From an uncultured Burkholderiales bacterium (lineage in GTDB: Bacteria > Pseudomonadota > Gammaproteobacteria > Burkholderiales > JAEUOS01): DNA of 64,000 nucleotides. Position 1 is the first letter of the stretch, and each line of letters begins with the position of its first letter. The notes under the pieces are model-generated. The model did no database searches. It was not told the origin of the DNA and saw only the letters and a list, made by a program, of their open reading frames with translations. The position numbers and the translations under genes were made by a program. This document shows positions 20,873-64,000 of the stretch, piece after piece. Location of the stretch: contig CAYUEG010000002.1 of the NCBI GenBank assembly GCA_964443245.1, forward strand, positions 8,188-72,187, given 5' to 3'.

Positions 20873-20900
20873 ACCGCATACCGTCTACAAGGAGAATCAA

Positions 20901-21830: not shown

Positions 21831-21843
21831 TCCGAGGTAATCC

Positions 21844-22233: not shown

Positions 22234-22239
22234 GGAATC

Positions 22240-22989: not shown

Positions 22990-23016
22990 CGGGGCGCGCC
23001 AAACGGAGAAGTGCTG

Positions 23017-24795: not shown

Positions 24796-24903
24796 TAAGG
24801 CGCGGTGGCACCGGGCATCGCGTAAAAAGGGACAGCAGCAACCGCAGCAAAGAAGGTGTTTCTGATGATGCTGGCGGCGCGCGGGCGCCGGGAGGAGAAC
24901 GGA

Positions 24904-48991: not shown

Positions 48992-50194
48992 ATGAGAATG
49001 AGCACACAGACGTTGTACGAGGCAGGAACAGCCTCGCTCGGATCACAGCAGACAGACCTGTTCAGGATCCAGCAGCAGATGGCCACCGGACGCCGCGTGC
49101 TGACGCCGGCAGATGATCCGGTATCGTCCAGCGCGATCCTGAATGCGCGGCAGGCACTGCATTTCAACGCACAGCATGCGGAAAACCAGACGGCGGCCAG
49201 CAATGCCCTGGGTCTGGTGGAGAATACGCTGGGAGCCGCCGGTGATGCGATTCAGGATGCACGGCAGCTGATCCTCTCGGCCAACAATGGTGCGCTCACG
49301 GATGCCGATCGACGCACGGTTGCCACGCAGCTGGAGAATCTGCTCAGCCAGCTCACCGGTATTGCCAACACGCGCGATGGCGGCGGCCGTTACATGTTCG
49401 GCGGTTTCAAGGACGAATTGCCGCCCTTTGCGCTCAATGCAACGGGCGGTGTGTATACCGGGGACGAGGGTGAGCGCCGCGTCGAAGTGGCGCCGCAACG
49501 CAGCATGGAAGTGACGACCAGCGGTGCGGCGACCTTCATGCGCATTCCGAACGGCAATGGCGTGTTCTCCGCGCGTGCCGGGGCCGCCAATGCGGGTTCC
49601 GGCGTGATCGATCCGGGGCAGGTGGTGAATCCGGCGGCCTTGACCGGGAACCAGTACCGGATTCAGTTTACCGGCGCTGCCACTTACGATCTGCTCGACG
49701 TCACCGCCGGCACCACGGTGTCCAGCGCCAACGCGTTCACGCCGGGAACCGCGATTACCGTGGCCGGGATGCAGACCACCATCGCCGGACAACCGTCGGC
49801 GGGAGACAGCTTTGACCTTGCCCCCAGCGCACAGCAGGATGTCTTCACCACGCTGCGCTCGATCATCACCGCACTCAATACGCCGACCAGTGGCACGGCG
49901 GGCACCACGCGGGTGACCAATCAGATCAACGCGGCGGTCATGGATCTTGACCGTGCCGCAGACAACATCCTGACGACCCGCACGCAAGTGGGTTCGCGCA
50001 TGGCCGAACTGGATCGGCTGCAGGCCGTCAACAGCGCCTCCGGCATTGAACACCAGCGGCGCCTGTCCGAACTGGAGGATCTCGACTATGCCGCGGCGGC
50101 GTCGGATCTGACCCGCAAGCAGACCATGCTGCAGGCCAATCAGGAGACGTTTGCGCGCCTGGCCAAGCTGAGCTTGTTCAATTTCCTGGCGTGA
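48992..50194 (+). CDS. flgL: Hook-filament junction protein FlgL
   Basis: MRMSTQTLYEAGTASLGSQQTDLFRIQQQMATGRRVLTPADDPV is flagellin-like. ATG 48992 has the best SD spacing; ATG 48983 and ATG 48998 are alternatives. Confidence 0.9.
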   Translation: MRMSTQTLYEAGTASLGSQQTDLFRIQQQMATGRRVLTPADDPVSSSAILNARQALHFNAQHAENQTAASNALGLVENTLGAAGDAIQDARQLILSANNGALTDADRRTVATQLENLLSQLTGIANTRDGGGRYMFGGFKDELPPFALNATGGVYTGDEGERRVEVAPQRSMEVTTSGAATFMRIPNGNGVFSARAGAANAGSGVIDPGQVVNPAALTGNQYRIQFTGAATYDLLDVTAGTTVSSANAFTPGTAITVAGMQTTIAGQPSAGDSFDLAPSAQQDVFTTLRSIITALNTPTSGTAGTTRVTNQINAAVMDLDRAADNILTTRTQVGSRMAELDRLQAVNSASGIEHQRRLSELEDLDYAAAASDLTRKQTMLQANQETFARLAKLSLFNFLA

Positions 50195-52374
50195 CAGGCC
50201 GTTGCCGGTACCCTGAGGTTCGGCCCGTCTGTGGTGGCGGATCCTTCTGGCGGGAGGCTCGCAGGGGCGCCGTCGGGTCGAACAGTGTCTGAACCAGACT
50301 GTCGCAGCAGGGCGCGGAAGAGGGCATCCGGAACCGGCTTGCTGAACAGGTAACCCTGCATGGTCTGACAACCGTGCGTGCGCAGCAGGGCAAGCTGTGC
50401 ATCGGTCTCGACGCCTTCGGCAACCACCTCAAGCTTGAGGGTTCGGGCCATCGCAATGATCGCAGCCGTGATGATCTCGTTATCGTGATTGTCGTTGATG
50501 TCCGACACGAATGACCGGTCGATCTTCAGCTGATGAATGTCAAACTTCTTGAGATAGGCAAACGAGGAGTAGCCGGTACCGAAGTCGTCGATCGCCAGCC
50601 GTACCCCAAGACGTTTCAGGCGCTGCAGGCTGACGATGGTGGTGGCCAGATCCTTCATCAGCATCGATTCGGTGATCTCGAGCTCGAGAAGGTGAGCGGG
50701 CAGATTGGTGGCGTGCAGCACGTCCTCGATCATCTCGACGAATCCGGGCTTCTGGAAGTGTGATCCCGGAATGTTCACGGCGACCCGAATCGGCGGCAAG
50801 CCGTCTGCGATCCAGGAGGCGGCATCACTGGCAGCCTGCCGCAATGCCCACTCCCCGAAAGGCACGATCAAGCCGCTTTCCTCGGCAATCGGGATGAATA
50901 CCGACGGTGGCACCGGTTTGCCTTCGTGCTTCCAGCGCATCAATGCTTCGGCGCCGACAATCTTGCCGCTCATCCCATCGATCTGGATCTGGTAATGCAG
51001 TTCAAGTTCATTGCGCTCGAGTGCCTTGTTGAGCGCCTGCTCCAGCTCCCAGCGCTGGCGGTCCGTGGTCTGCATCTCGGGCGTATAGGCGCACAAGTCA
51101 TTGCGGCCCTGTGCCTTGGCCGAATACATCGCAGCGTCGGCGTTGCGCAGCAGTTCGTCCGGATCGACGCCGTCCTGTGGATATTGGGCAATGCCGATGC
51201 TGGCACTGACGAATGTCTCCTGGCCGTTGATGAGGAACGGGGCACGCAGCGATTCGAGCATGCGCTCGGCAACCTGCATGGATTGCTTCTCGTCCGTGAT
51301 GTTGGTCAGCAGGACGACAAATTCGTCACCGCCCAGGCGGGCGACGATGTCACGGTTGCCATCCCGCCAGCGTACGCACTGGCTCAGGCGCTCCGCCACC
51401 TCGCGCAGGAGCATGTCGCCGGCTCCATGACCCTGGGTGTCGTTGACGTGCTTGAATCGGTCAAGATCGACAAACAGTGCCGCCAGTTTGCCGACCGACT
51501 GTTCGGCTTCCGCCACGGCGTCCTCAAACGCCACCTGAAACAGCCGGCGATTCGGCAACCCTGTCAGCGAATCGTAATTGGCCAGGGAGAGGATCTGTTC
51601 CTCGATGCGCTTGCGCTGTGAAATGTCCTGGATGGTGCCTGCGATGACGTCAATGGCGCCCGATTCCGAGCGTTGTGCCTGCGCCTCTAGCTGAACGAAC
51701 GACAAGTCGTCGGCATTGCGCCCCAGACTCAGTTCGATCGCCAGTTCACCGCCATCATGAGCCAAGCGCGCCAGCGATCGCTCCAGCGCCTGCTTGTCCT
51801 CGCTTACTACGTGTTCGAAGAATGTTCCCTTGTCGACGACCCCGGAGGTCGTGCCGGCGCGCGCGATGCCCATGCTGATTTCGCAGGCGGTGACCTTGCC
51901 GGTGCGCAGATCGATCTCCCAGTTGCCCAGGCGGGCAATCTTCTGGGCACGCGCCAGTTTGGCGCGGCTCTCTTCGAGTTCCTGACGCATCCGGCTGGCA
52001 CGCAGTAGATAGCGGGTACGTTGCGCCAGAAGCGTCCACTGATTCGATTTGACGAAGAAATCGGTTGCGCCCGCTTCGTAGGCGAAGGCGATCGATTTTT
52101 CGTCGTCCAGGCCGGTCAGCATCAAAATCGGAATATGCGCGCCGTTGGGTTGCAGGCGAATCGCCCTGCAGACGTCAAATCCATCCATGCCTGGCATGAG
52201 TGCGTCCAGCAGCACGCAATCGAAGGCCTGCTGTGAAAACTTGTCAAGTGCTTCCTGGCCGCTCCCGGCTTCGACGATACGCATGCCCTTCTGGGCGAGT
52301 ACCGAGGCGGTCAACAGCCGGGAAACCGGATCGTCATCCACGAGCAATACGACGTCATGATCAGTCGGATGCAT
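50140..52374 (-). CDS. REC-PAS-GGDEF-EAL c-di-GMP turnover protein
   Basis: REC (LLVDDDPVSRL, VLLDALMPGMDG), a PAS-like segment, GGDEF (ARLGGDEFVVLL) and EAL (EALMRW, DDFGTGYSS, KIDRSF). The 3' end overlaps the convergent flgL by 55 nt. Confidence 0.9.
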   Translation of the reverse strand: MHPTDHDVVLLVDDDPVSRLLTASVLAQKGMRIVEAGSGQEALDKFSQQAFDCVLLDALMPGMDGFDVCRAIRLQPNGAHIPILMLTGLDDEKSIAFAYEAGATDFFVKSNQWTLLAQRTRYLLRASRMRQELEESRAKLARAQKIARLGNWEIDLRTGKVTACEISMGIARAGTTSGVVDKGTFFEHVVSEDKQALERSLARLAHDGGELAIELSLGRNADDLSFVQLEAQAQRSESGAIDVIAGTIQDISQRKRIEEQILSLANYDSLTGLPNRRLFQVAFEDAVAEAEQSVGKLAALFVDLDRFKHVNDTQGHGAGDMLLREVAERLSQCVRWRDGNRDIVARLGGDEFVVLLTNITDEKQSMQVAERMLESLRAPFLINGQETFVSASIGIAQYPQDGVDPDELLRNADAAMYSAKAQGRNDLCAYTPEMQTTDRQRWELEQALNKALERNELELHYQIQIDGMSGKIVGAEALMRWKHEGKPVPPSVFIPIAEESGLIVPFGEWALRQAASDAASWIADGLPPIRVAVNIPGSHFQKPGFVEMIEDVLHATNLPAHLLELEITESMLMKDLATTIVSLQRLKRLGVRLAIDDFGTGYSSFAYLKKFDIHQLKIDRSFVSDINDNHDNEIITAAIIAMARTLKLEVVAEGVETDAQLALLRTHGCQTMQGYLFSKPVPDALFRALLRQSGSDTVRPDGAPASLPPEGSATTDGPNLRVPATACHARKLNKLSLARRANVS

Positions 52375-53308
52375 CGGTTTGCTCCTCTGCCTGCAAGACC
52401 TGCAGGCGCAAGATGTCGTCCATGGCCAACTGGACGGCAGATTCCACTTCGCACATCAGGTGTTGTGCACGGGAAAGTTGATCAATGCTTGCCGCCTGTT
52501 CGATCATTCGAAACAGCTCGGCCGCTTTCAGCGCACCAAAGTGCGTGTGCCCGGACTTGAGCGCATGGGCGGTGGCGCGCACCTCGGAGGCGTCCTGGTG
52601 GTGCAAGGCATCGCGCAGCTTCTGCAGATTGTGCGGCACGCTAACGACGTAGGCCTCGCACAAGCGTCCGAGCAGGCCCGGGGCCCCAGCACGCTGCAGG
52701 CAGAGCAGGCCCTCAACAACCTCCCTGGAAAGGGATCGTGACGAAAGCAGCGTGACCGGCACCGCGGGTTTGGCGTATTGGCCGGCCCCTGGCGATGTCG
52801 ATCCCCGGGATCCTGCCGACAACGACCGATCAATCAGCCATCGGTCCAGCATCTGGTGCAATTGTGCATCGGTAAACGGCTTGCTGAGGTAGTCCGAGAA
52901 GCCGGCGGCGAGGCATCGGTCACGATCGCCAGGAAGCGCATTCGCCGTCAGGGCAATGACGGGAATGTCGTCGGGCACCCGCAGGGGCGATTCCGAAGCG
53001 GCAGACTGGCGAATGGCGGTCGCTGCCAGAAAGCCGTTCATCACTGGCATCTGGCAATCCATCAAGACGATATCGAACGCTTCAGATGCAAGCCGTTCCA
53101 GCGCGGCCCTGCCATTTTCTGCACAGGCGATGTCGAAATCGCACCCTTCGAGCATGGTCAGGGCGATCTCCAGATTGATGGGGTCATCGTCGACCAGAAG
53201 CACGCGTACCGGACGTGGCCGGCCCAGCCGGGGCACGATGCACGGCTCGGTGTGCCGCGTCGTGACGGCGACGGGCACACAGGCAGGGGGTGACGAGGAC
53301 AGGCGCAC
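52361..53308 (-). CDS. Receiver-HPt phosphorelay protein
   Basis: REC (LLVDDDPINLEI, VLMDCQMPVMNG, ALTANA, YLSKPF), then HPt with ATAHALKSGHTHFGALKAAEL. GTG start, uncertain. The stop overlaps the next gene by 14 nt. Confidence 0.8.
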   Translation of the reverse strand: MRLSSSPPACVPVAVTTRHTEPCIVPRLGRPRPVRVLLVDDDPINLEIALTMLEGCDFDIACAENGRAALERLASEAFDIVLMDCQMPVMNGFLAATAIRQSAASESPLRVPDDIPVIALTANALPGDRDRCLAAGFSDYLSKPFTDAQLHQMLDRWLIDRSLSAGSRGSTSPGAGQYAKPAVPVTLLSSRSLSREVVEGLLCLQRAGAPGLLGRLCEAYVVSVPHNLQKLRDALHHQDASEVRATAHALKSGHTHFGALKAAELFRMIEQAASIDQLSRAQHLMCEVESAVQLAMDDILRLQVLQAEEQTDASD

Positions 53309-53323
53309 GATCGTCCCGGAAGG

Positions 53324-53779
53324 TCAATGCAGCATGGTTCTCGCGCCTTCGCGGTAATCGGGCGCAAGGGTGGCCGGGCCGACGCGCAAGCTCTTCAATT
53401 CGGCCTGCGCGTGGCGCAGGGAGAGCAGATTGACCACCCGGGCGACCAGTTCCGGCAGGTCGACTGGCTGCTCCAGGAAATCCGTCGCGCCAATGCGCAG
53501 GGCATCGCCCCGGAGGAAACGGGCGGATGGGTCATGCATCAGCACCACCGGATTGTCATCTCGGCCGGGGATCTGACGGAATCGGCGGATGAATTCCAGT
53601 CCGTCGGTCGCCCGCATCAGATGGGAGACCAGCACCAGGTCCGGTTCGTGTTCGAAGCTCCAGTCCAGGGCGGCGGCAGGATGCTCGAATCCGAGCACCG
53701 TTGCCAGCCGGCATTGACCGATGGCCTGTTGAATCCATGACACCTCTTCGGGTCGATCGCTTACAACAATGATATTCAT
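53324..53779 (-). CDS. Stand-alone pseudo-receiver (REC fold, phospho-acceptor Asp replaced)
   Basis: MNIIVVSDRPEE...PDLVLVSHLMRATDGLEFIRRFRQ...PVVLMHD...GATDFLEQPVD is collinear with REC. Asp becomes Ser at the acceptor position, Lys becomes Gln, and the first acidic residue becomes Ser. Confidence 0.65.
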   Translation of the reverse strand: MNIIVVSDRPEEVSWIQQAIGQCRLATVLGFEHPAAALDWSFEHEPDLVLVSHLMRATDGLEFIRRFRQIPGRDDNPVVLMHDPSARFLRGDALRIGATDFLEQPVDLPELVARVVNLLSLRHAQAELKSLRVGPATLAPDYREGARTMLH

Positions 53780-53967
53780 GGTGACAAGGTTCCCCAGATT
53801 TGAAATGAATACCCCCTTTACGGCAGGGGTCGGGAAATCTTGATGATCGGGCGGTCGGAAGCCCCAAACTGGCCTGCATAAGACAACCTGTTCACCGCTT
53901 TCCGCTGCCGCCCGCAGGCGTAGAGTGCGGTGTCCCCATCGGCAATCCGGCAAATGTCCCCACCACC

Positions 53968-55728
53968 ATGACAGCCGCTTTAGCTTCGCCTCAACCTGCC
54001 AACCCGACCGAAGCGGCCCGTGAGGTCATTCGCAAGCTGGCATTGGAGCGCATTCCGCCCACACCGGAAAACTACGCCCGCCTGTTCGCCGAGATTTCCG
54101 GAACGGAGGACCGGCACCCGGTGGTCGATTCGGTGCGCAAGTGGGCCGCCAGACTGGTGCGGGAGCCTGGCAGTGCAGCGCTCGGCCGGCAAGTGCTCAA
54201 GGCAGTCAAGCAGCAGAAATGGAGCGAACTGGATCAGGTCTTTGAGCAGTGTTCTAGCCAGCCGATTCGTGCACATGCCGAGTGGAGTGCCGTGGTCCAG
54301 GAAATGGTCCGCAAGTGGCCCGCCAGAAACGAACCGGCGGCTTGTGCACACAGCGCCGACCATGTGCTCAGCGCACTGCGCAGTGCCGAGGAAGATCCGG
54401 ACTGCGGCCTGACCCAGCTGCGCGCCCTGGTACGCACCTGGGCCGATGCCGGAACGTCTCGTCCGCCTGCCGCCGCGTCGGCCGGTGCAAGTGCCGTGGC
54501 CATACCGGTCGAAACCGATGCGAAAGCGCAGCAGTTCCGTGAACTTCTGGCACGCACGCTTGAAATCGCTGTGGTGGAGCGGCTTGGGTACACGCCGGAA
54601 CTGGCGGCCCATGCCCGCCGCCTGGCCGAACAGTGTCGCACCGTCCACAAGGCGAAAGAAGTGCTGCAGGTGGAGCAGGATCTGCGACAGTTCTGGGTGC
54701 GGCTGGAACTGCGCGGCGAAACGCTGGACCGGCTGATCAGCGGCTTGCTCAACCTGCTGCGCCTGATGATCGGCAACCTGGGCGAATTGGCCGGCGAAGA
54801 TGCCCTGATCCAGGCGCAACTGGTGCGGGCGCAGCAATTGATTGCCGATCCGATCGACATCAACGCGGTGCATGAAGCCGAACGCAGCTTCCGCGAGGTT
54901 GCGATCCGCCAGGGCACCATGCGCCATTCCCTGGACGAAGCCAAGAACGCACTCAAGAGCATGGTGGCGCTGTTTATCGACCGGTTGGGCGCACTGACCT
55001 TAGCCACCGGCGACTTTCACCAGAAGGTGGGCGGATATGTCGCCCAGATCGAGGAGTCGGACGATCTGGCGAAACTGTCTTCCATCGTCGGGGCATTGCT
55101 GGCGGATACACGGATGGTACATGCCGATATGGAGCGCACCCACGACGAGCTGCAGCGGACGCGTCAGGAAGCGCAGGCGCGGGAAGCGCGGGTGCGGCAG
55201 CTCGAATCCGAGCTTGCCTCCCTTGGCGATCTGATCAAGGTTGATCCGCTCACCTCCGTGCTCAACCGGCGCGGTCTCGATGAGGCCTTTGCCGCCGAAG
55301 AGGCGAGGGCGGCGCGCAGCGGGACATCGTTGAGCGTGGCTTTGCTCGATGTCGACAACTTCAAGCGCCTCAATGACCAGTATGGGCACAAGACGGGCGA
55401 CAACGCACTGACCCACCTGGCCGAAATCCTGCGCTCGACCATCAGGCCATCCGACAAGGTCGCGCGGTTTGGCGGCGAGGAATTTGTGCTCCTTTTGCCC
55501 GATACGCCGATGGAGGAAGCCGTTGCGGTGATGACGCGGGTGCAACGCGAACTGACACGGCGCTTTTTCCTGCATGAGAATGAAAAGATACTGATCACCT
55601 TCAGCGCCGGGGTTTCACAATGGCGCAAGGGTGAAACCAAGGAACAGGCATTCGAAAGGGCGGACGCGGCGATGTATGAGGCCAAGCGCACCGGCAAGAA
55701 TCGCGTGGTCTGCGCGCCGCTGTCCTGA
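53968..55728 (+). CDS. Diguanylate cyclase (long helical N-terminal region + GGDEF with I-site)
   Basis: C-terminal GGDEF domain: LDVDNFKRLNDQYGHKTGDNAL, RPSDKVARFGGEEFVLLLP. The RxxD I-site lies exactly 5 residues before GGEEF. The roughly 400-aa N-terminal part is helical/coiled-coil with no TM segment seen. Confidence 0.85.
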   Translation: MTAALASPQPANPTEAAREVIRKLALERIPPTPENYARLFAEISGTEDRHPVVDSVRKWAARLVREPGSAALGRQVLKAVKQQKWSELDQVFEQCSSQPIRAHAEWSAVVQEMVRKWPARNEPAACAHSADHVLSALRSAEEDPDCGLTQLRALVRTWADAGTSRPPAAASAGASAVAIPVETDAKAQQFRELLARTLEIAVVERLGYTPELAAHARRLAEQCRTVHKAKEVLQVEQDLRQFWVRLELRGETLDRLISGLLNLLRLMIGNLGELAGEDALIQAQLVRAQQLIADPIDINAVHEAERSFREVAIRQGTMRHSLDEAKNALKSMVALFIDRLGALTLATGDFHQKVGGYVAQIEESDDLAKLSSIVGALLADTRMVHADMERTHDELQRTRQEAQAREARVRQLESELASLGDLIKVDPLTSVLNRRGLDEAFAAEEARAARSGTSLSVALLDVDNFKRLNDQYGHKTGDNALTHLAEILRSTIRPSDKVARFGGEEFVLLLPDTPMEEAVAVMTRVQRELTRRFFLHENEKILITFSAGVSQWRKGETKEQAFERADAAMYEAKRTGKNRVVCAPLS

Positions 55729-55735
55729 GGCCAGC

Positions 55736-58150
55736 GTGGAGCCGATCGTTCGAACTGCTCCGCCCCGCCGCCGCCGGTACTGGTCCCGGGACGCCGTTGC
55801 CGCTTCCGGCGGCATCTGGTCGGCGTTTGATGAGATGCCGATCGGCGTGCTGCGCATCAATGCACAAGGCGCGGCCAGCTACTGGAACCGTGCGCTCTCC
55901 CGTTTGCTGGAACTGGACCGGACCGGTCAGGACGCCCACCTGGCGCCGGATGCGTGCGCCACGCGCGGTCTGCGCGGGCTCGTCGCCGCCTGTCTGAAGC
56001 AGGTCGGGGTGGAAGGGCTGCCGGCGCCGGAATTCGAGATCCTGAACGAGGGTGGTGCGGTGCGTTACTTGCGCGCCTCCCCCTTCCTGGTGGAAAGCGA
56101 ACTGGAGGAAGGGGCGTTCTGGTTTACGGTCGAGGACGCCGGCCGGACAAGAAGGTTGATGAACCTTCTGGCACAGAGCGAGGCCGACTCTCGCCTTCTG
56201 TCCGCGGTGGCCGGACATACGCAGAACATGGTACTCATTCTGGGCCGGAACGGCGAGATTGAATGGGTCAGCAAGACGTTCGAGCAATTCAGTGGCTACG
56301 CGCTTGCCGAACTGAAGGGGCAAAGGCGCGACCGGTTGTTCACCGGTGCCGATACCGATCCGACGGCGCTGCAGCGGATTGGGGCCAGCCTGGCCACCCA
56401 TGCGCCGTTTACCGAGGAACTGCTGAGCTACAAAAAGTCGGGCGAAGCGTACTGGTCATCGATCGAGGCCTCTCCGGCCTTTGACATGGACGGCAATCCC
56501 GACCGCTTTGTACTGATTGAGCGTGATGTCACCGATCGCCGACGTGCCGTCGAAGCCTTGCGCGCCAGTGAAAGACGGTACCGGATGATCGTCAGCAGTG
56601 TCCGGGACGTGATCTTTCAGATCGATGGCGACGGGTGCTGGACCTTCCTCAGCCCCGCCTGGGAGCACCTGACCGGCTTCGCCGTGGAGCAATCCCTTGG
56701 ACGTGCCTTGTGGGACGACCTTGATGCAGCCGACAAATGGCGCGCAGAAGTGGTGGTGCAGCAATTGCTGCATGCGCCGGATACCGTGGATGAGGGCATC
56801 TTCCGGGTGACCTGCAGGAACGGCGAACAGAAGTCGTTCGAATGGCGCATGCGCAGTGCGGCTGCGGAAAATGGCCTCGTGAGCTGTACCGGCACACTGC
56901 ACGATGTCACGGATACGCAGCGGGCAGGTGAGGCCGTACGGCGCGTGGAACAGGAGCTTCTACGGCTCCAGGCACGTTATCAGGCAGCTGTCGAAGGGGC
57001 CAACGACGGCCTCTGGGAGCGGGACCTCGCCAGCGGGGTAGGCTATTACTCTGCACGGATGTGCCAGCTTCTGGGATTGCGTCCCAAGGAGCTGGTTCAG
57101 GAGACGGATGTCATCCTGATGTGTCTTCACCCGCAGGACGTGAACGCCTACCAGGAGGCTTTGGCACAAATGCGCCTCTCGCGGCGGGCCGAACCGCGCG
57201 ATCTGCGCATTGTCATGCCAAAGGGGGCAGTGCAGTGGATTCGCCTCCGGGGAGGTGCCGTGTTCGATGCCGATGGCGTGCTCGAGCGAATCACGGGAAC
57301 CGCCACCGATATCTCTGCGGAGAAGGAAGTGGAACACGAGCTCGACGGGTACCGGCAGCACCTTGAAGAGATGGTTGCCGAACGCACCGAGGCTGCCGAC
57401 AACGCCAGAAGACAAGCCGAGCAGGCGAGCCAGGCCAAGAGCGAGTTTCTGGCCAACATGTCCCATGAGTTGCGCACGCCGATGCACGCAATTCTCAGTT
57501 TTGCCGATTTTGGCGCCGAAAAAACGGCTGTGGGCAATCATTCGCGTTCGAATCACTACTTTGCCACGATTCGCAAGAGCGGCAAGCGTTTGATGGATCT
57601 GCTCAATGACCTGCTTGATCTGTCCAAGCTGGAAGCCGGAAAAATGGAGCTGCGGGTCAGTTCGGTGGATTTGCGCGAAACCCTGGCCGAAGCGCTGGCC
57701 GAAGCCGAGGCCATGGCGCGTGTCAAGGGCATCCGCCTGATACTGTCGGGCACGGAACAAGCGCAGGTGGTCGAGGCAGATGCGCCGCGCATGTTGCAGG
57801 TTTTTCGCAATCTTTTGTCCAATGCCATCAAGTTCAGCCCGCCTGATGCCGTAGTCGAAGTAACGCTTGAAGGCAATGTCTCCCCGCCGAACTGGGCGGA
57901 GATACGTTTTACCGACAGCGGGGTCGGCATTCCCGAAGACGAACTGGAAGCCGTATTTGACAAGTTTGTGCAGTCAACCAAGACCAAGAGCGGTGCAGGC
58001 GGCACTGGCCTGGGCCTGGCGATTTGCCGGCAACTGCTGGCTGCGCATGGCGGCACCATCCACGCAGTGAATCGGGATGCGCCGCATAGCGGTTGCTCCT
58101 TCGTGGTGCGCATGCCGCGTTCTTCAGGTGGTCCGGCCGTGAACGACTGA
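55736..58150 (+). CDS. Cytoplasmic multi-PAS sensor histidine kinase
   Basis: At least three PAS-like blocks, then HisKA FLANMSHELRTPMHAI and HATPase (NLLSNAIKFSP, DSGVGIP, GTGLGLAICRQL). Start GTG 55736 is preceded by GAGG; ATG 55835 is an alternative. Confidence 0.85.
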   Translation: MEPIVRTAPPRRRRYWSRDAVAASGGIWSAFDEMPIGVLRINAQGAASYWNRALSRLLELDRTGQDAHLAPDACATRGLRGLVAACLKQVGVEGLPAPEFEILNEGGAVRYLRASPFLVESELEEGAFWFTVEDAGRTRRLMNLLAQSEADSRLLSAVAGHTQNMVLILGRNGEIEWVSKTFEQFSGYALAELKGQRRDRLFTGADTDPTALQRIGASLATHAPFTEELLSYKKSGEAYWSSIEASPAFDMDGNPDRFVLIERDVTDRRRAVEALRASERRYRMIVSSVRDVIFQIDGDGCWTFLSPAWEHLTGFAVEQSLGRALWDDLDAADKWRAEVVVQQLLHAPDTVDEGIFRVTCRNGEQKSFEWRMRSAAAENGLVSCTGTLHDVTDTQRAGEAVRRVEQELLRLQARYQAAVEGANDGLWERDLASGVGYYSARMCQLLGLRPKELVQETDVILMCLHPQDVNAYQEALAQMRLSRRAEPRDLRIVMPKGAVQWIRLRGGAVFDADGVLERITGTATDISAEKEVEHELDGYRQHLEEMVAERTEAADNARRQAEQASQAKSEFLANMSHELRTPMHAILSFADFGAEKTAVGNHSRSNHYFATIRKSGKRLMDLLNDLLDLSKLEAGKMELRVSSVDLRETLAEALAEAEAMARVKGIRLILSGTEQAQVVEADAPRMLQVFRNLLSNAIKFSPPDAVVEVTLEGNVSPPNWAEIRFTDSGVGIPEDELEAVFDKFVQSTKTKSGAGGTGLGLAICRQLLAAHGGTIHAVNRDAPHSGCSFVVRMPRSSGGPAVND

Positions 58151-58169: not shown

Positions 58170-59102
58170 ATGGCACATCCAGAAGCACCCCCTGTTGACC
58201 AGAGCCATGCGGAAAGTGCCAGGCGCAAACTTCTGGTGGTCGATGACGAACCTCTGAACATCGAGATCATCTGCGAGCATCTGGAGGGATTGGCCATCGA
58301 TCTGGAAACCGCGGCCGATGGCGTGGCCGCCTGGAACATGCTCGATGCAGATCCGGAAGGCTTCGATGCCGTCCTGCTGGACCGGATGATGCCCGGAATG
58401 AGCGGGATCGAGGTACTGGAACGGATTCGCGCCGATCAACGTCTGCGCCACCTGCCGGTCATCCTGCAGACGGCGGCGGCCGGCCGCGAGCAAGTGCTCG
58501 AGGGCCTGCGTAGTGGTGCCTATTACTATCTGACCAAACCGTTCGAGCGCGACATGCTGCTGTCGGTCGTGCGCGGGGCGCTTGAGCAGAGCGCGCGCCG
58601 GCAGGATTTGCTGATCGACATCGTGGCAAGCAAGGCGGCGATGGAGGGGTTGCAGCAGGCCTGTTTCGAGTTCCGCACGCCCGCCCAGGTACGGGCCATT
58701 GCCGCTTTGCTTGCCAAGGTGGCACCGGTGCCGGAAATGGCGGTGATCGGGTTGAGCGAACTGATGCTCAATGCCGTGGAGCACGGCAATCTGGAAATTT
58801 CGTATGAAGAAAAGTCAGCGCTGTTGCAGGAGGGCCGATGGGAACAGGAAATCGCTGCCCGTCTGGCTGATCCGCGCAGGGGTTCGCGCAGTGCACAGGT
58901 AAGCGTGACGCGCAAGGCCGACGAGATCGTCTTTGAAATCGAGGATGAGGGTGCCGGCTTTGACTGGAGCAGGTTTCTTGAACTGAGTGCAGAGCGGGCA
59001 TTCGACAGCCACGGTCGCGGCATCTCGATGGCGCGCAGCCTGAGCTTTTCGGCGCTGCAGTATCAGGGCTGCGGCAACCGCGTCAGGGCGGTGATCGCGT
59101 AA
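58170..59102 (+). CDS. Receiver fused to an RsbW/SpoIIAB-like serine kinase (HATPase_c_2-type) domain
   Basis: REC (LLVVDDEPLN, VLLDRMMPGMSG, ILQTAA, YLTKPF). The C-terminal part has the N-box ELMLNAVEHGN, G1 DEGAGFD and G2 GRGISMAR, and no HisKA/H-box. Confidence 0.8.
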   Translation: MAHPEAPPVDQSHAESARRKLLVVDDEPLNIEIICEHLEGLAIDLETAADGVAAWNMLDADPEGFDAVLLDRMMPGMSGIEVLERIRADQRLRHLPVILQTAAAGREQVLEGLRSGAYYYLTKPFERDMLLSVVRGALEQSARRQDLLIDIVASKAAMEGLQQACFEFRTPAQVRAIAALLAKVAPVPEMAVIGLSELMLNAVEHGNLEISYEEKSALLQEGRWEQEIAARLADPRRGSRSAQVSVTRKADEIVFEIEDEGAGFDWSRFLELSAERAFDSHGRGISMARSLSFSALQYQGCGNRVRAVIA

Positions 59103-59130
59103 CGCGACCCGGGTGGCGTGCCTGTCCGCC

Positions 59131-59763
59131 TTACTCAACCAGCTTGTGCTTGAGTGCGTAGTGGGTGACTTCAGCGTTGTTCTTCATGTGCATTTTCTCC
59201 AGGATGCGGGCGCGATAGACGCTGACTGTCTTCGGGCTGAGCGACAACAGCTCGGCAATCTGGGATAGCTGCTTGCCCGATGCAATCAGGCACATGGTCT
59301 GGTACTCGCGATCCGACAGGGATTCATGCGGAGGGGCATCGGATTCATCGACCAGATGGGTTGCCAGCGTTTCAGCCAGGCTGGGCGTGATGTAGCGCTT
59401 GCCGCGTGCCACCGTATGGATGGCTTCCAGCAGGCGTTCCGGCGCATGATCCTTGGTCAGGTAGCCTGAGGCGCCGGCCTTGAGCGCACGCAGGGCATAT
59501 TGATCTTCCGGGTACATGGACAGGATCAATACCTGCATCTTCGGGTAGGTTTCCTTGACGATCTTCAGGATTTCGATGCCGTTCTTGCCCGGCATGCCGA
59601 TGTCAAGCAGCAGGACGTCGCACGCGGCGCCACGCAACAGGCGCATCAGCTCACTGTATTCGCTGGCCTCCCCGGTGATTTCGATGGTCGGACTGTCGTC
59701 GGCGATCAGGCGCATGCCCTTGCGTACGATCGCGTGGTCATCGGCAATGACAACCTTGATCAT
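59131..59763 (-). CDS. NarL/FixJ-family response regulator (REC + LuxR HTH)
   Basis: VVIADDHAIVRKG, VLLLDIGMPGKNG, ILSMY, YLTKD. HTH: LSDREYQTMCLIASGKQLSQIAELLSLSPKTVSVYRARILEKM. Confidence 0.92.
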   Translation of the reverse strand: MIKVVIADDHAIVRKGMRLIADDSPTIEITGEASEYSELMRLLRGAACDVLLLDIGMPGKNGIEILKIVKETYPKMQVLILSMYPEDQYALRALKAGASGYLTKDHAPERLLEAIHTVARGKRYITPSLAETLATHLVDESDAPPHESLSDREYQTMCLIASGKQLSQIAELLSLSPKTVSVYRARILEKMHMKNNAEVTHYALKHKLVE

Positions 59764-61688
59764 GCTGCCGCCTTTCTTGAGCTGCCGGTCTTGCGCGGCA
59801 ACGACACCATCACCGTGGTGCCGTCGCCCCCCGTGCCGCTGATCTCGACCCAGCCGTCAAGCGCGCGGGCCCGTTCCATCATGCCCTTGATGCCGAACGA
59901 GGTTTCCTTGTTGAGGTCATCGACTGCCATGCCGACGCCATTGTCGCGTATCTCCAGCGTGATGTTGCTGGCGGTGGCGAACAGGTGCGATTCGACTTTG
60001 CTGGCATGGGCGTACTTGTAGATGTTGGTCAAGGCTTCCTGGAAAATCCGGAACAGGGTGGTCGAGTGATCGATGTCGAGCTTGATCTCGTCCTCGTTGC
60101 TGTCGAACGACACCGGGATGCCCATGCGCTGGCTGAAATCCTTGGCTTGCCAGTCCAGTGCCGGAACGATGCCATCGTCCAGGATGCCGGGCCGGAGCGA
60201 ACGGATGATGCGATTGGCTGTGCCCACTGCGCCATCGACCAGCTGTTGCATGTCGTCGAGTTTGGCGGAGGCCATCTCGTCGTTGGCCAGCCGCTTGCGC
60301 AGCCAGGCAGCGTCGGCCTTCAGGCCGGCCAGAATGCTGCCGATGTCGTCGTGAATCTCGCGTGACACGGCCATCCGTTCCTGCTCCTTGAGCGATTCCA
60401 TGTGTGCGCTCAGTCGCCGCAATTCCTCGCGCGAGCGGGTGAGTTCGATCTCGGCAAGCTTCTGGGCGGAGACGTCGGTGATCACGCCGTCAAATACATG
60501 ATTGCCGGCGTCTCCCGGGGTGACCGAAGCCGAGAGGTGGATCCACTTGGTGCTCTGGTCGGCGATGGTGACCTGCCATTGGCCCTGCAACGGCTTTCCG
60601 CTGCGCAGTGCAGCACTGACGGCGCTGCGAATCTCCTCCTGTCCCGGTGCATCAAACAGCTGCATGAAGCGGGCAGGGTCCTGAATGAATACCTCGGGCA
60701 GCACGCCGAACAATGCCTGGCAGCCGGCGCTGACATAAGTGATGCGGGCAGCGCCAAGGTCGGGCCGGAATTGCATGCGAAACAGCACGCCGGGAAGATT
60801 CGCCGAGATCGCCGCAACGTGAGACTCGCTTTCCCTTCTGGCGGCCTCGGCTTGTCGCTGGCTGGTGATGTCGGCCGCGAAGACGACCGTGCCGCCACCG
60901 CGCGAAGCCGGCAGGGGCGCCGCCGACACCAGCAATGCCGATTCCGTGCCGTCGTTCTGGCGCCAGGTAGCGGCAATGTTCTGCACCGGCTGGTGCGAGG
61001 CCACTGCACTGAAAGCCTGGTCCAGTACCTGCTGGTTGGCCGGGATGCGGTGCTCTGCCAGCCGGCCCAGTTCCAGCCCCGAGCCGGGAAACAGGACGTC
61101 CACTGCCGGATTCAGGAGGGTCACCCGGCGCTCGGCGTCAAAGGCAATCACGGCGACCGGCGAGTTGATCACCAGCGTGCGCAGGTAATCCTCCGACGCT
61201 TGCAGGCCGGCCAGGGCGCTCAGGCGGCTGCGGCGTACGGTGGCTTCCTTGATGGCGCGCTCGATGGCCGTCGGCAACCTTCCCAGATTGTGCTTCATGA
61301 CATAGTCGTCAGCACCCTCGCGCATGGCTTCCACCGCCATGTCCTCGCCGACCGCCCCCGAAACAATCAGGAAAGGCATTTCCGCATCGTGCGCCTTGGC
61401 AATCGAAAGCGCCGCGCTGGCGGAGAAGCGCGGCATGCGGAAATCCGAGATGACAATGTCCCACTGGGCACCGGCCAGGGCTGCCCGCATGTCGGCCTCG
61501 TTGTCAACGCGCTGGATTTGCGGATCGACGGCGAACTGCGCCCTGCGCAGCGCGTGCCGGATCAGGGCGAAGTCGGTCTCCGAATCGTCCACCACCAGAA
61601 TGCGGATCGGATGTTCGGGCAGTGCTGGCGGTGAAATGGCGCGCTGCTGCCAGTCGGCAAGGTGATCGGTGGCCGGAAACGTAGTCAA
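59760..61688 (-). CDS. REC-PAS-PAS-HisKA_3-HATPase sensor kinase (NarX/DegS-type core)
   Basis: N-terminal REC (ILVVDDSETD, IVISDFRMPRFS, YVMKH) and two PAS-like blocks. H-box REIHDDIGSILAGLK, then HATPase (QEALTNIYKYA, DNGVGM). A 4-nt overlap with the NarL-type regulator. TTG start, uncertain. Confidence 0.88.
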   Translation of the reverse strand: MTTFPATDHLADWQQRAISPPALPEHPIRILVVDDSETDFALIRHALRRAQFAVDPQIQRVDNEADMRAALAGAQWDIVISDFRMPRFSASAALSIAKAHDAEMPFLIVSGAVGEDMAVEAMREGADDYVMKHNLGRLPTAIERAIKEATVRRSRLSALAGLQASEDYLRTLVINSPVAVIAFDAERRVTLLNPAVDVLFPGSGLELGRLAEHRIPANQQVLDQAFSAVASHQPVQNIAATWRQNDGTESALLVSAAPLPASRGGGTVVFAADITSQRQAEAARRESESHVAAISANLPGVLFRMQFRPDLGAARITYVSAGCQALFGVLPEVFIQDPARFMQLFDAPGQEEIRSAVSAALRSGKPLQGQWQVTIADQSTKWIHLSASVTPGDAGNHVFDGVITDVSAQKLAEIELTRSREELRRLSAHMESLKEQERMAVSREIHDDIGSILAGLKADAAWLRKRLANDEMASAKLDDMQQLVDGAVGTANRIIRSLRPGILDDGIVPALDWQAKDFSQRMGIPVSFDSNEDEIKLDIDHSTTLFRIFQEALTNIYKYAHASKVESHLFATASNITLEIRDNGVGMAVDDLNKETSFGIKGMMERARALDGWVEISGTGGDGTTVMVSLPRKTGSSRKAAA

Positions 61689-61904
61689 GTGTGGAAATTG
61701 GAAGACAGAAGGTGGATCGGACCGCTAATCACCGGAACACTGCGCCGGCACATTGCCTAGACTCTATTGTACAAATCCGGCCCGGTCCCGGCGGCGAGCG
61801 TGTTGCGTTCAGGAAAGGCAGCCAGTTGCCGTAATGGGACTGCAAGGGCGGGTGATGCTGGGTTGCCCCAATGGCAGGCATGGGCCTGCTTACCAACGGA
61901 GAAG

Positions 61905-62213
61905 ATGATGCGATACGAGTTAGCGCGGCACGAAAATCAGGCCAAACTTTTCCTGAATGGCCGCTTCGACTATTCCTGTCACCGGGAACTGCGCAAGGCC
62001 TTTGACGACGCCTGCGCCCCGGAGAGCACGCACGAGCTGGTGATCGACATGCAGGGCGTTGACTACATGGACAGCTCGGCGCTGGGCATGTTGTCGCTGC
62101 TGCGCGACCGCTGCCGGGCCAACAACAAGAAACTGATCCTGGCGAACTGCCGTGCCCAGGTGATGCAGATCCTGAAAGTCACCAATTTCGACAAGCTGTT
62201 CACGGTGCAGTAA
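61905..62213 (+). CDS. STAS-domain anti-sigma-factor antagonist-like protein
   Basis: 102 aa from ATG 61905, preceded by GGAGAAG. VIDMQGVDYMDSSALGMLSLL carries the conserved phosphorylatable Ser of SpoIIAA/RsbV-type proteins. Confidence 0.8.
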   Translation: MMRYELARHENQAKLFLNGRFDYSCHRELRKAFDDACAPESTHELVIDMQGVDYMDSSALGMLSLLRDRCRANNKKLILANCRAQVMQILKVTNFDKLFTVQ

Positions 62214-62223
62214 AGCCGGGCCG

Positions 62224-63420
62224 GTGGCACCGATACGGATTATCCAGTTCGGCCGGGCGGCGGCCTGGCCGGAGGCCCTGCGCAGCATTGTGGCCTCCTC
62301 CGAGTCGCTGGTGATTGACGAAGGGAGCTTCGAAGCGTCGATTGGCGTCATGGGGGATCTGGTCAGGTCGTTCCGGCCGGACCTCATTCTTACCCCCAGT
62401 TGTGGTGATGGCAGCCGCTTGCGGCAGATCGTGGAGCGAGTCCGTCATGCCGAGTCGCGCTGGTGGACCCACGTCTGGTGCGTCAATGGCCAGGCCGAAG
62501 ACCTGATGGCCGGGGTCGACGGGTTGATCCCCGCCGACGCGGCGGCCGACTGGATTGCCGGCCGTTTCGACATGCTGGGCAAATTCATCTCGCTGCAACG
62601 CCAGACCCGCTCTGAACTGGAGCAACTGCATTTGCGTCTGAATGAGCATTTGCTGGAAATGCGCTCCGCTGCATCCATGATGCGCAAACTGATCGAGATG
62701 CCGGCCAACACCGTCTTGTCCGGTTACGTCTGGAATGCGCCGGCATCCAGTTTCAGCGGCGACCTTCTGTACGGTATCGAGTGCCAGGACGGTGCGCTTG
62801 AGGTGATCCTTGCTGATGGCGTCGGGCATGGGCTGGCCGCTGCGCTCAATGTCCTGCCGATCATTCCGCCGTTTGAGCGGCGCATTCGCCACAGCCGGCC
62901 TCTCGGCCAGGCCGTAGTCGATCTGGACAAGGCGGTTCGCGCCTACCTGCCGGCCTACCGTTTCATTGCCGCCACGATCGTGCGCGTGGATCCGTCCAAA
63001 CGCCGCTTGCAGGTATGGAATGGGGGCAATCCGGATGCGCTGTTGTTCGACGACAAGGCGCGCCTGATACACCGCTTTGCCAGCCGCCACCTGCCGCTGG
63101 GGGTGGCTCCCGACCTGGGGCTGGATACCTCTATCGAGTCAGTCCATTTTCACGATGGCCATCACCTGCTGCTGTGTTCGGATGGCATCCTGGAGGCGAC
63201 CAATGCCCATGGCGAAATGTTCGGCGAGGCGCGCCTCCTTGACGCGATCGCCGGGTGCGAGCCGCCACAATGGGTCATGGCAATCAAGGATGCAGTGGTG
63301 AACCATCTCCAGGGCGAATCGGCCCATGATGACCTGACCGTTGTGGTTCTGGATGTCGATCAAGTGACCGAGCGTGCACAGGCCAGCATGGCCGTCAACT
63401 TTGGTGTGCGGGCGGATTGA
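62224..63420 (+). CDS. PP2C (SpoIIE/RsbU-type) serine phosphatase with a degenerate N-terminal receiver-like domain
   Basis: PP2C motifs FSGDLLYG, ILADGVGHGLAAAL, LLLCSDGILEA and HDDLTVVVLDV. The N-terminal roughly 120 aa resembles REC, but PDLILTPSCGDG puts Thr where the Asp should be. GTG start 10 nt after the STAS stop. Confidence 0.85.
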   Translation: MAPIRIIQFGRAAAWPEALRSIVASSESLVIDEGSFEASIGVMGDLVRSFRPDLILTPSCGDGSRLRQIVERVRHAESRWWTHVWCVNGQAEDLMAGVDGLIPADAAADWIAGRFDMLGKFISLQRQTRSELEQLHLRLNEHLLEMRSAASMMRKLIEMPANTVLSGYVWNAPASSFSGDLLYGIECQDGALEVILADGVGHGLAAALNVLPIIPPFERRIRHSRPLGQAVVDLDKAVRAYLPAYRFIAATIVRVDPSKRRLQVWNGGNPDALLFDDKARLIHRFASRHLPLGVAPDLGLDTSIESVHFHDGHHLLLCSDGILEATNAHGEMFGEARLLDAIAGCEPPQWVMAIKDAVVNHLQGESAHDDLTVVVLDVDQVTERAQASMAVNFGVRAD

Positions 63421-63513: not shown

Positions 63514-64000
63514 TCAGACGCGGATGGCGCGTCCTTCCGTTCCGGAGCAGTGGGCCAGCAGGCTGGCGGCGATCCCGGAAAGCGGCAACACCTCGTGCAC
63601 GGCACCGGCCGCAATCGCCTCACGTGGCATGCCGAATACCACGCAGGAGGCCTCGTCCTGGGCAATGTTGTAGGCGCCCGCTTCGCGCATCTGCAACATG
63701 CCCTGAGCGCCGTCCTTGCCCATGCCAGTCAGCATCGCCGCCACGGCGGACTTGCCGGCATGTTGTGCGGCGGAGCGGAACAGCACCTCGACCGATGGTC
63801 GATGGCGGTTGACCGGGGGATCGTCCGACAGCGCAGTGACATAGTTGGCGCCGCTTTTCTGCAGGGCCAGATGCCGGTTTCCGGGGGCGATATAGGCGTG
63901 CCCAGGCAACACGCGCTCACCGTGCTCGGCCTCCTTCACACTGATCTGGCACAAGCGGTCGAGGCGCTCGGCGAAGCTGCGGGTGAAGCCCGCAGGCATG
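63514..64000 (-). CDS. cheB: Chemotaxis methylesterase CheB, C-terminal catalytic part (gene runs off the right edge)
   Basis: [40 protein letters not shown] and [16 protein letters not shown] are CheB methylesterase blocks. The ORF is open at the window end. Confidence 0.9.

Follow-up and report, generated by a model that had tools for sequence, protein, structure and literature searches.

When the phosphatase of a bacterial partner switch carries no kinase domain of its own, which protein phosphorylates the STAS antagonist? The question is raised by a locus in a 64,000-nt stretch of DNA (hereafter the window; positions 8,188 to 72,187 of contig CAYUEG010000002.1, assembly GCA_964443245.1) from an uncultured Burkholderiales bacterium, where the gene of a single-domain STAS protein is followed by that of a PP2C phosphatase with a degenerate receiver (REC), and a third gene encodes a receiver joined to an RsbW-like kinase domain. 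The initial annotation, made from the sequence alone, had taken these genes for the separated parts of an HptB/HsbR/HsbA module. Our comparisons point to a different origin for the kinase, which resembles TciR of Vogesella indigofera and LvrC of pathogenic Leptospira. We favour, with a probability of roughly 45%, the reading that this TciR-like protein is the kinase in trans, and possibly the anti-sigma partner, of the STAS protein, with two-component input arriving on the kinase side.

The authors who described TciR stated that its substrate is unknown and that proteins of such an architecture had not previously been characterised, and they doubted a STAS mechanism because RsbV is absent (J Bacteriol 2025, December; PMC12826045). 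LvrC has been presented as a putative receiver-regulated anti-sigma factor that is phosphorylated by LvrB, its partner, sigma factor or STAS protein, being likewise stated as unknown (Nat Commun 2026, April; PMC13269768). As TciR and LvrC have no known targets, the value of the locus and its relatives is that they are the first genomic context that ties the family to the STAS and PP2C parts of a partner switch; the locus also represents a natural "kinase-deleted, receiver-dead" variant of HsbR in which the STAS protein is a concrete candidate substrate for the TciR/LvrC class. What is new here is that a TciR-like kinase is embedded among HsbA/HsbR-like parts, and that one lineage retains no other kinase in cis.

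The STAS protein

Profile searches of the three proteins returned matches to STAS, HATPase_c_2, SpoIIE and, on the kinase protein, Response_reg, as the initial annotation had led us to expect. The STAS protein appears to be an ordinary antagonist of the RsbV/HsbA type with a predicted phosphorylatable serine, Ser56. Its mechanical open reading frame (ORF) spans 61767..62213, and the likeliest start is the ATG at 61908, as in all orthologues, which gives a protein of 101 amino acids. It matched Pfam STAS (PF01740) with 61.8 bits and the NCBIfam family TIGR00377 (anti-sigma factor antagonist) with 63.6 bits, above the cut-off of 53.45, and aligned to the anti-sigma antagonist TM1442 in the PDB (E = 1e-11). 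Within the motif VDYMDSSALG (D55-S56-S57-A-L-G60), residues D55, S56 and G60 did not vary among the 10 STAS proteins aligned, one of which was SpoIIAA. The phospho-site of HsbA is likewise Ser56 (PMC5085249). Comparison with the orthologue in locus L001 gave a ratio of nonsynonymous to synonymous substitution rates (dN/dS) of 0.086. The match scores and the invariant D55-S56 thus bear out the annotation of a STAS protein with a phosphorylatable Ser.

A phosphatase derived from HsbR/CrsR

The phosphatase gene begins 10 nt downstream of the STAS stop codon. Its product matched SpoIIE/PP2C with 121.5 bits at residues 189-378, and the metal-binding motifs (D180, D198-G-x-G-H202, D320-G321 and D369-D370) were invariant in an alignment of its relatives. 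No Pfam match was obtained for residues 1-178 even at E<=10; nevertheless, this part aligned to the receiver of three-domain relatives. An AlphaFold2 model (mean pLDDT 83) predicted a (beta-alpha)5 receiver fold at residues 1-107 followed by a long helix (pLDDT about 80-88), so that the protein is modelled as a pseudo-receiver (1-107), a helical linker of 50 residues (108-157) and a PP2C domain (166-385). The best Foldseek match of this model was full-length RssB of Pseudomonas aeruginosa, a REC-linker-PP2C protein (E = 7e-16). All five signature positions of a receiver were lost, the acidic pair being F9-G10, the phospho-Asp column P58, the Thr N88 and the Lys A104. The receiver had been called degenerate on the ground that its Asp was replaced by Thr; the degeneracy is confirmed and the position was off by one, since the Asp column holds Pro58 and Thr57 precedes it. 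Either way, the region Thr57-Pro58 offers no acidic acceptor.

The closest sequence clusters to this protein were three of 394-398 amino acids (74-100% identity). The next matches were REC-PP2C-HATPase_c_2 proteins of about 580 amino acids (35-38% identity over 82-89% of the query), some of which are labelled "HptB-dependent secretion and biofilm response regulator" by JGI/KEGG; exact-sequence look-ups of the window phosphatase and of protein P0088 returned no records. That the closest outside relatives have this three-domain architecture agrees with the view that the STAS and PP2C proteins are an HsbA/HsbR-like, or equivalently CrsA/CrsR-like, pair. The window protein ends about 14 residues past its PP2C domain, where the relatives go on into a kinase domain of about 170 residues, and a tblastn search found no relic of an HsbR kinase domain downstream of the gene. 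On these comparisons the protein is best described as a derivative of HsbR/CrsR and not as a member of the group, both the phosphorylatable receiver and the kinase/anti-sigma (D3) domain having been lost. In locus L006 the STAS gene and the gene of an HsbR-like protein follow cheR-cheB on the same strand, and the pair also stands directly after cheR-cheB in L088; in the window and in L001 the chemotaxis (Che) cluster is convergent and abuts the truncated 3′ end of the PP2C gene. A rearrangement at the Che junction probably caused the loss of the kinase domain.

Such a rearrangement could also have left a functionless remnant, so that the pseudo-receiver phosphatase, and perhaps the STAS protein, would be a decay product of an HsbR-like gene clipped when the Che genes were inverted. 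The protein does end exactly at the inverted Che junction and has lost every receiver signature residue. However, its reading frame is intact, at least three more sequence clusters (74-77% identity) share the 394-398-amino-acid form, the metal-binding motifs of the PP2C domain are all invariant and the model is confidently folded. Moreover, comparison with L001 gave dN/dS values of 0.18 (pseudo-receiver) and 0.10 (PP2C domain), at a dS of about 0.8-1.0. The protein is under purifying selection and is not decaying. This selection test largely refutes the decay scenario, which we regard as extremely improbable; for the PP2C gene itself, the dN/dS of 0.10-0.18 together with the intact catalytic residues rules out a pseudogene.

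Loss of the flanking functions is seen elsewhere too. A betaproteobacterial sub-group of HsbR-like proteins (P0145-P0157) is of full length, yet Pfam often fails to detect the receiver and/or the kinase domain; the receiver pocket, the N-box and G1 are degenerate and the PP2C domain is intact. One of its members, P0149, lies in the same type of island, in L088. Loss of function in the flanking domains with retention of the PP2C domain is a trend in this HsbR-like clade. The repeated loss of receiver and kinase function in HsbR/CrsR-type regulators, with the phosphatase kept, bears on the evolution of bifunctional signalling proteins.

A kinase of the TciR/LvrC family

The TciR-like protein matched Pfam Response_reg with 86 bits at residues 22-134 and HATPase_c_2 with 37.4 bits (gathering score 27.4) at residues 171-308. 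In Pfam, its match to the histidine-kinase ATPase family HATPase_c reached 17.3 bits, under the gathering score of 26.4, and there was no HisKA or H-box match; an ordinary histidine-kinase ATPase is therefore ruled out for the C-terminal domain. In a 17-member alignment of the family, the receiver residues D25, D26, D71, T101 and K123 and the kinase motifs (N-box E197/N201/H205-G206, G1 D259-x-G261-x-G263 and G2 G282-R283-G284) were invariant or nearly so. The description of this protein as a canonical receiver fused to an RsbW-like kinase with N-box, G1 and G2 motifs and no H-box is upheld by these results.

Its relationship to TciR was established through protein P0293, which was reached via an Aquitalea homologue and is encoded by the sixth gene of JBPXRZ010000001.1, the accession under which the TciR authors deposited their genome and in which ACSVIT_00030 is TciR and ACSVIT_00025 is TciK. 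P0293, that is V. indigofera TciR, directly follows a CHASE-PAS histidine kinase on this contig and shares 47% identity with the window protein over 292 residues (E = 2e-98). A profile of the TciR-like family matched LvrC (PDB 9QIH, deposited under the name "SenB") over its full length (residues 5-290, E = 3e-22). This structure was the sole significant PDB match of the window kinase domain (E = 5e-6) and the best Foldseek match of an AlphaFold2 model of the protein (E = 4e-15). The family is large, with 1102 clusters at 50% identity and E<=1e-30, nearly all of about 300 amino acids. The closest match among species-level genomes, 55% identical, came from a Burkholderiales metagenome-assembled genome (MAG), and dN/dS against the L001 orthologue was 0.11. 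The kinase domain shares 26% identity with HsbR-like kinase domains (E = 1e-4) and has an insert after the N-box in common with them. At the level of sequence, the REC-kinase protein agrees with the TciR/LvrC family in everything tested, and this family is large, strongly conserved and separate from HsbR.

Whether the kinase could have arisen by fission of an HsbR gene bears directly on how the locus is to be read. In the sister lineages L006 and L007, the island contains a TciR-like gene together with an intact three-domain HsbR-like protein. This coexistence and the separate family of 1102 clusters rule out the fission of HsbR into two genes, and the TciR-like gene is instead ancestral to the island. 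As a consequence, the picture of a disassembled HsbR holds for the phosphatase, which has lost its kinase domain and its receiver phospho-site, and fails for the kinase, which is no fragment of HsbR. Because the TciR-like gene stands beside an intact HsbR-like protein in L006 and L007, the proposal that the receiver had moved from the phosphatase to the kinase is wrong as an evolutionary statement.

Histidine kinase, HPt protein and diguanylate cyclase

A TciK-like histidine kinase is encoded immediately upstream, its gene stopping 19 nt before the start of the TciR-like gene. The true start within its ORF is probably GTG 55736 or ATG 55835. The kinase core (residues 532-834) shares 43% identity with TciK (E = 2e-43), and the likeliest phosphodonor of the TciR-like receiver is, judging from this proximity and similarity, the non-hybrid PAS histidine kinase. 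The REC-HPt protein of the island, noted in the initial annotation, is a less likely donor, being less parsimonious than the adjacent kinase.

The REC-HPt protein has a history of its own. Its residues 35-273 share 40% identity (E = 2e-56) with residues 654-925 of a hybrid kinase in L007 (1482-4391, minus strand; 969 amino acids by gene call and 1062 from the mechanical ORF). It corresponds only to the last receiver and the HPt domain of the hybrid kinase of 969-1476 amino acids that occupies the same position in L005-L007. The sensor-kinase part of this hybrid kinase is gone in the window, L001 and L089, the lineages with a dead HsbR-like receiver, and a tblastn search of the window found no kinase remnant beside the REC-HPt gene.

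The diguanylate cyclase, encoded just upstream of the TciK-like kinase, had been named in the initial annotation as a possible part of a switch between motility and cyclic di-GMP control. It has 586 amino acids with a GGEEF motif and an RxxD I-site, and its N-terminal part of about 420 residues gave no Pfam match. With a hydropathy that peaks at 1.36 over 19 residues, it is not expected to have a transmembrane segment, whereas HsbD has 389 amino acids, six transmembrane segments and a C-terminal GGDEF domain (PMC5085249). An HsbD orthologue is therefore ruled out. The length (577-588 amino acids) and position of the cyclase are conserved across the island-type loci, including L001, L005, L006, L007 and L089.

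Survey of TciR-like loci

The survey covered 80 species-level genomes with a TciR-like gene, scored with our own domain models. In the island-type loci, the gene order GGDEF-histidine kinase-TciR-like / NarL-REC-histidine kinase / STAS-(HsbR-like) was kept from 82% to 53% identity of the TciR-like protein (L001, L089, L005, L006, L007 and L088). Two further loci, from two other lineages at about phylum level, have independently arisen tight operons that combine the three activities. In L041, from a gammaproteobacterial MAG, STAS, HsbR-like and TciR-like genes form, in this order, a tight operon with a 4-nt overlap, and its neighbours (a hybrid kinase with REC and HPt domains, REC-GGDEF-EAL, GGDEF genes and a histidine kinase) are the window's gene set in another order; in L040, from a Bacteriovoracaceae MAG, the order is TciR-like, REC-PP2C, STAS. 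The HsbR-like gene of L041 (8273-10010, plus strand) is split within its PP2C domain into the ORFs 8273-9226 and 9237-10010, which could mean that the gene is truly disrupted or carries a frameshift, or that the sequence contains an error.

A histidine kinase gene lay directly upstream of the TciR-like gene in 35 of the 80 genomes. In 29 of them a PP2C gene was immediately adjacent on the same strand, usually coding for a REC-PAS-PP2C protein, and in most of these cases no STAS gene accompanied it. One of these neighbours, P0215 in L038, has a PP2C domain that shares 39% identity with that of the window phosphatase. A STAS gene within 10 kb of the TciR-like gene was found in just 3 of the 80 loci, and a broadened STAS model, to which SpoIIAA, RsbV and TM1442 had been added, found no further STAS genes near TciR-like loci (ORFs of >=55 amino acids, E<=0.05). 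The trio of REC-kinase, STAS protein and phosphatase, for which a neighbourhood survey had been suggested, occurs in the island-type lineages and in L040 and L041.

In three loci of Rhodocyclaceae/Zoogloea (L023, L048 and L078) the order is TciR-like, histidine kinase, TciR-like, REC-PAS-PP2C. The two TciR-like genes flank a single large kinase gene, which suggests a tandem duplication of the regulator.

A proposed switch and its alternatives

In the reading that we favour, the TciK-like kinase would phosphorylate Asp71 of the TciR-like protein and thereby modulate its Bergerat domain, which in turn would phosphorylate Ser56 of the STAS protein in trans and/or bind the unphosphorylated form. 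The pseudo-receiver phosphatase would remove the phosphate from the STAS protein; it would no longer be under phosphorelay control, and would either be active constitutively or respond to a protein partner that activates it via the pseudo-receiver and linker. Together, the three proteins would work as one switch in the style of RsbU/RsbV/RsbW, rebuilt with the receiver on the kinase, and two-component input would enter at the kinase side, whereas in HsbR it enters at the phosphatase side.

The sign of the input may differ as well. Phosphorylation of the HsbR receiver favours phosphatase activity and the unphosphorylated form favours kinase activity (PMC6482189). In Vogesella, overexpression of TciR bypasses the loss of TciK (PMC12826045), which fits activation by phosphorylation; by analogy, a signal would raise the level of phosphorylated STAS protein here, and the sign would possibly be opposite to that in HsbR. 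As to output, the kinase domains of HsbR and CrsR bind RpoS, and HsbA associates with either FlgM or a diguanylate cyclase (PMC6482189). Candidate outputs would be FlgM/FliA, the co-operonic diguanylate cyclase and a sigma factor bound by the Bergerat domain, which by analogy with HsbR/CrsR would be RpoS-like.

Several observations argue for a coupling of the kinase to the STAS protein. A tblastn search of the 64-kb window for the lost HsbR kinase domain found the TciR-like kinase domain and no other homologue. The synteny of the island, the tight operons of L040 and L041 and the adjacency of PP2C genes in the survey suggest a functional link. So does the repeated decay of the kinase and receiver motifs of HsbR-like proteins (P0145-P0157; L088) alongside a TciR-like protein that stays conserved. 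The strong constraint on Ser56 and on the whole STAS protein in lineages lacking the HsbR kinase domain points in the same direction, as does the reduction of the hybrid kinase to a REC-HPt protein in the very lineages that lost the HsbR-like phospho-site. Taken together, the gene set suggests, without proving, a protein on which this type of kinase acts.

Other observations weigh against this reading. We know of no TciR/LvrC-type Bergerat domain for which a biochemical activity has been shown. The scarcity of STAS genes near TciR-like genes in the survey is matched in V. indigofera, where no STAS or PP2C gene lies within 8 kb of tciKR and where the authors report no RsbV homologue at all (PMC12826045). 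In the sister lineages L006 and L007 the STAS protein already has a predicted cis kinase in the intact HsbR-like protein, so the TciR-like protein is not needed as its kinase there. In the window, a convergent two-component pair separates the TciR-like gene from the STAS-PP2C genes, which are therefore not one operon with it, and the genome outside the window may encode other RsbW-like kinases.

These points would be accommodated if two independent modules merely shared a neighbourhood. The TciK/TciR-like pair would then be a receiver-controlled anti-sigma system acting on some sigma factor, following the LvrC model and without a role for the STAS protein, and the STAS protein and its phosphatase would be the leftover CrsA/CrsR-like output arm of the neighbouring Che system, their kinase being encoded elsewhere. 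We consider this rather unlikely. It is consistent with the 77 of 80 TciR-like loci that have no STAS gene nearby and with the situation in V. indigofera; the LvrC authors, too, propose direct sequestration of a sigma factor (PMC13269768). A Che cluster with a STAS gene and a REC-PP2C-kinase gene is already known from Shewanella oneidensis, whose che1 locus has crsR-crsA within the Che operon (PMC9855816), the STAS-HsbR-like genes directly follow cheR-cheB in L006 and L088, and the TciR-like and STAS genes of the window are in different transcription units. However, the STAS, PP2C and TciR-like operons of L040 and L041 speak for association of the modules, as does the conserved synteny of the island. 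The PP2C neighbours in 29 genomes point to Ser/Thr phospho-signalling rather than pure sigma-factor sequestration, and the invariance of the ATP-binding and kinase motifs across the TciR-like family also counts against this reading.

The same PP2C neighbours, together with the architecture of the window phosphatase, would also suit a wiring like that of RsbT and RsbU. RsbT, a kinase of the RsbW family, binds the N-terminal domain and the linker of RsbU and so activates it, and the P. aeruginosa RssB structures 3F7A/3EQ2 have the same crossing-linker geometry (PMC12143880). By analogy, the main role of the TciR-like Bergerat domain would be to activate the PP2C phosphatase as a protein partner, its docking on the pseudo-receiver and linker would drive dimerisation of the phosphatase, and phosphorylation of the TciR-like receiver would switch the phosphatase on or off; kinase activity would be compatible with this, as it is in RsbT. 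The phosphatase model, with its 50-residue linker helix, finds its top fold matches in these RssB structures, the pseudo-receiver is under purifying selection (dN/dS 0.18) although it is non-phosphorylatable, and the adjacent TciR-like and PP2C genes of the survey mostly come without a STAS gene. On the other hand, the PP2C neighbours elsewhere have intact receivers and PAS domains and could supply the regulation themselves, and this wiring leaves the STAS kinase unexplained. We judge it improbable, and keep to the TciR-like protein as the kinase of the STAS protein.

If this holds for the window, it may hold more widely. As a tentative generalisation, one on which we place somewhat less confidence than on the switch itself, proteins of the TciR/LvrC class would be both the Ser kinases in trans and the binding partners of HsbA/CrsA-type STAS proteins, with HsbR-type PP2C proteins as the counter-enzymes, and HsbR would have been subfunctionalised in the island. 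The TciR-like protein would have taken over the kinase function of HsbR, whose receiver would have fallen silent, and a plain two-component system driving phosphorylation of the STAS protein would have replaced an HPt relay driving its dephosphorylation. If true, the arrangement would couple two-component, Che-type chemosensory and cyclic di-GMP (c-di-GMP) signalling to the control of flagellar or stress sigma factors.

Comparison with known systems

As in the TciK/TciR system of V. indigofera (PMC12826045), a histidine kinase is followed directly by a regulator of about 300 amino acids with a receiver and an RsbW-like domain whose kinase residues are conserved. The sensors differ, with three PAS domains here and CHASE-PAS in TciK. 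The tciKR pair stands alone in V. indigofera, whereas the pair described here lies in an island of STAS, PP2C, HPt, c-di-GMP and Che genes, and the TciR phenotype, indigoidine production, has no counterpart. LvrC (PDB 9QIH; PMC13269768) has the same combination of receiver and Bergerat fold, although the identity is only about 24%, and its input comes from the receiver-controlled kinase LvrB, which itself acts below the hybrid kinase LvrA, whereas a plain PAS histidine kinase lies upstream here.

The HptB-HsbR-HsbA and CrsR-CrsA systems (PMC6482189, PMC5085249, PMC9855816) resemble the locus in that the gene of a STAS protein with Ser56 is directly upstream of that of an HsbR/CrsR-lineage PP2C protein, in the proximity of flagellar genes (flgM) and a Che cluster, and in the presence of HPt and diguanylate cyclase genes nearby. 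However, HsbR and CrsR each unite REC, PP2C and kinase/anti-sigma domains in one protein, in which the receiver toggles between kinase and phosphatase, whereas the protein described here has a dead receiver and no kinase/anti-sigma domain, and the sole kinase in cis is the separate TciR-like protein with its own histidine kinase. Furthermore, the HPt domain is fused to a receiver, unlike that of the HptB system, and the diguanylate cyclase, a soluble protein, has an architecture unrelated to that of HsbD.

With RsbU-RsbV-RsbW/RsbT of Bacillus subtilis the locus shares the distribution of phosphatase, STAS protein and Bergerat kinase/anti-sigma factor over three proteins, as well as a phosphatase with an N-terminal domain and a helical linker. 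That domain is a pseudo-receiver here and a four-helix bundle in RsbU, the kinase carries a receiver, and the locus has no sigma factor gene, so that it differs from a classical rsbV-rsbW-sigB-type operon, in which the target sigma factor is encoded with the switch. As in SypE-SypA of Vibrio fischeri, a receiver-linked RsbW-like kinase and a PP2C domain would set the phosphorylation of a STAS protein, and the output is no sigma factor encoded in cis; SypE combines these in one protein (kinase-REC-PP2C), whereas here they are on two proteins and the receiver is linked to the kinase only.

The island and its surroundings

The ORF list and the Pfam and NCBIfam matches identify the region from 50 to 64 kb of the window as a signalling island bordering flagellar genes (Table 1). 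An island of about 13 kb is kept in Burkholderiales-like lineages, beside Che genes in most of these, and comprises REC-GGDEF-EAL, REC-HPt, REC, GGDEF, histidine kinase, TciR-like, NarL-type pair and STAS-PP2C genes. Genes for FlgM, FlgN, a FliA-type sigma factor, FlhB, FlhA and FlhF occupy 27-39 kb of the window, which places the island at the edge of a flagellar/chemotaxis supercluster. The presence of flgM and fliA in the same window, in a setting like that of hsbAR-hptB in Pseudomonas, had been noted before and is confirmed.

Table 1. Genes of the signalling island and associated flagellar regulators (window coordinates)
Gene product	Coordinates	Strand	Basis and remarks
FliA-type sigma factor	32705..33421	+	confirmed in window
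FlgM	38520..38801	-	confirmed in window
REC-GGDEF-EAL protein	50140..52374	-	domain map, NCBIfam; also in L001, L007; last gene of minus-strand operon
REC-HPt phosphotransfer protein	52361..53308	-	Pfam REC + Hpt
Single-domain receiver protein	53324..53953	-	Pfam REC 48.5 bits; position kept in L001, L005-L007
Soluble diguanylate cyclase	53968..55728	+	Pfam GGDEF 156 bits; first gene of same-strand GGDEF-histidine kinase-TciR-like cluster
TciK-like cytoplasmic histidine kinase, PASx3-HisKA-HATPase_c, without receiver	ORF 55631..58150	+	Pfam
TciR/LvrC-type response regulator, REC + RsbW-like (Bergerat-fold) predicted Ser-kinase/anti-sigma domain	58170..59102	+	Pfam, 310 aa
NarL/GerE-type response regulator	59131..59763	-	Pfam REC + GerE; convergent with TciR-like gene
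Receiver-controlled histidine kinase, REC-PAS-PAS-HisKA_3-HATPase_c	59760..61688	-	Pfam
HsbA/CrsA/RsbV-type single-domain STAS protein	61908..62213	+	Pfam, TIGR00377; 101 aa
Truncated HsbR/CrsR derivative, pseudo-receiver + helical linker + PP2C	62224..63420	+	Pfam, AlphaFold2; 398 aa
CheB, 3′ part of gene, first gene of convergent Che cluster	63514..63999	-	Pfam CheB_methylest 183 bits

Neither the ORF list nor the Pfam matches and domain map contained a separate sigma factor or anti-sigma factor gene between 50 and 64 kb, the nearest sigma factor gene to the switch genes being the FliA-type one. Because the RsbW-like domain is itself of the anti-sigma type, the earlier statement that no sigma or anti-sigma factor is encoded in cis holds, as regards anti-sigma factors, only for stand-alone genes. 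A promoter and terminator scan of 53.2-63.7 kb gave the same counts as shuffled sequence.

Orthologues of the single-receiver gene are called at 147-184 amino acids. In island-type loci, including those of Pigmentiphaga (L019 and L027) and L080, where no STAS gene was seen within 10 kb, the genes of the REC-HisKA_3 kinase and the NarL-type regulator always converge with the TciR-like gene. The architecture of the REC-HisKA_3 kinase recalls LvrB, the receiver-controlled donor of LvrC, although the family of its dimerisation and histidine phosphotransfer (DHp) domain differs.

In the gene calls of L001, the Che cluster reads cheB-cheD-cheR-poly-HAMP methyl-accepting chemotaxis protein (MCP)-MCP. 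The MCP beside cheR (L001 17938-20616, minus strand) is a poly-HAMP receptor of 892 amino acids with matches to McpB_HAMP_2, HAMP_N3 and HAMP_2, which resembles the Aer2/McpB type of F7 Che systems (P. aeruginosa Che2, S. oneidensis Che1). Besides the Che cluster beginning at 63514, the domain map of the window has a second, separate chemotaxis set at about 20772-26709 (plus strand), consisting of a CheW-REC (CheV-like) protein, a single receiver, CheA and an MCP. Finally, the FliA-type gene is followed by that of a 1210-amino-acid PAS-GAF-PAS-HisKA-HATPase kinase (33434-37066, plus strand) and by two single-domain receivers (37111-37590, plus strand, and 37576-37995, minus strand) just upstream of flgN/flgM, which together are another signalling module within the flagellar cluster.

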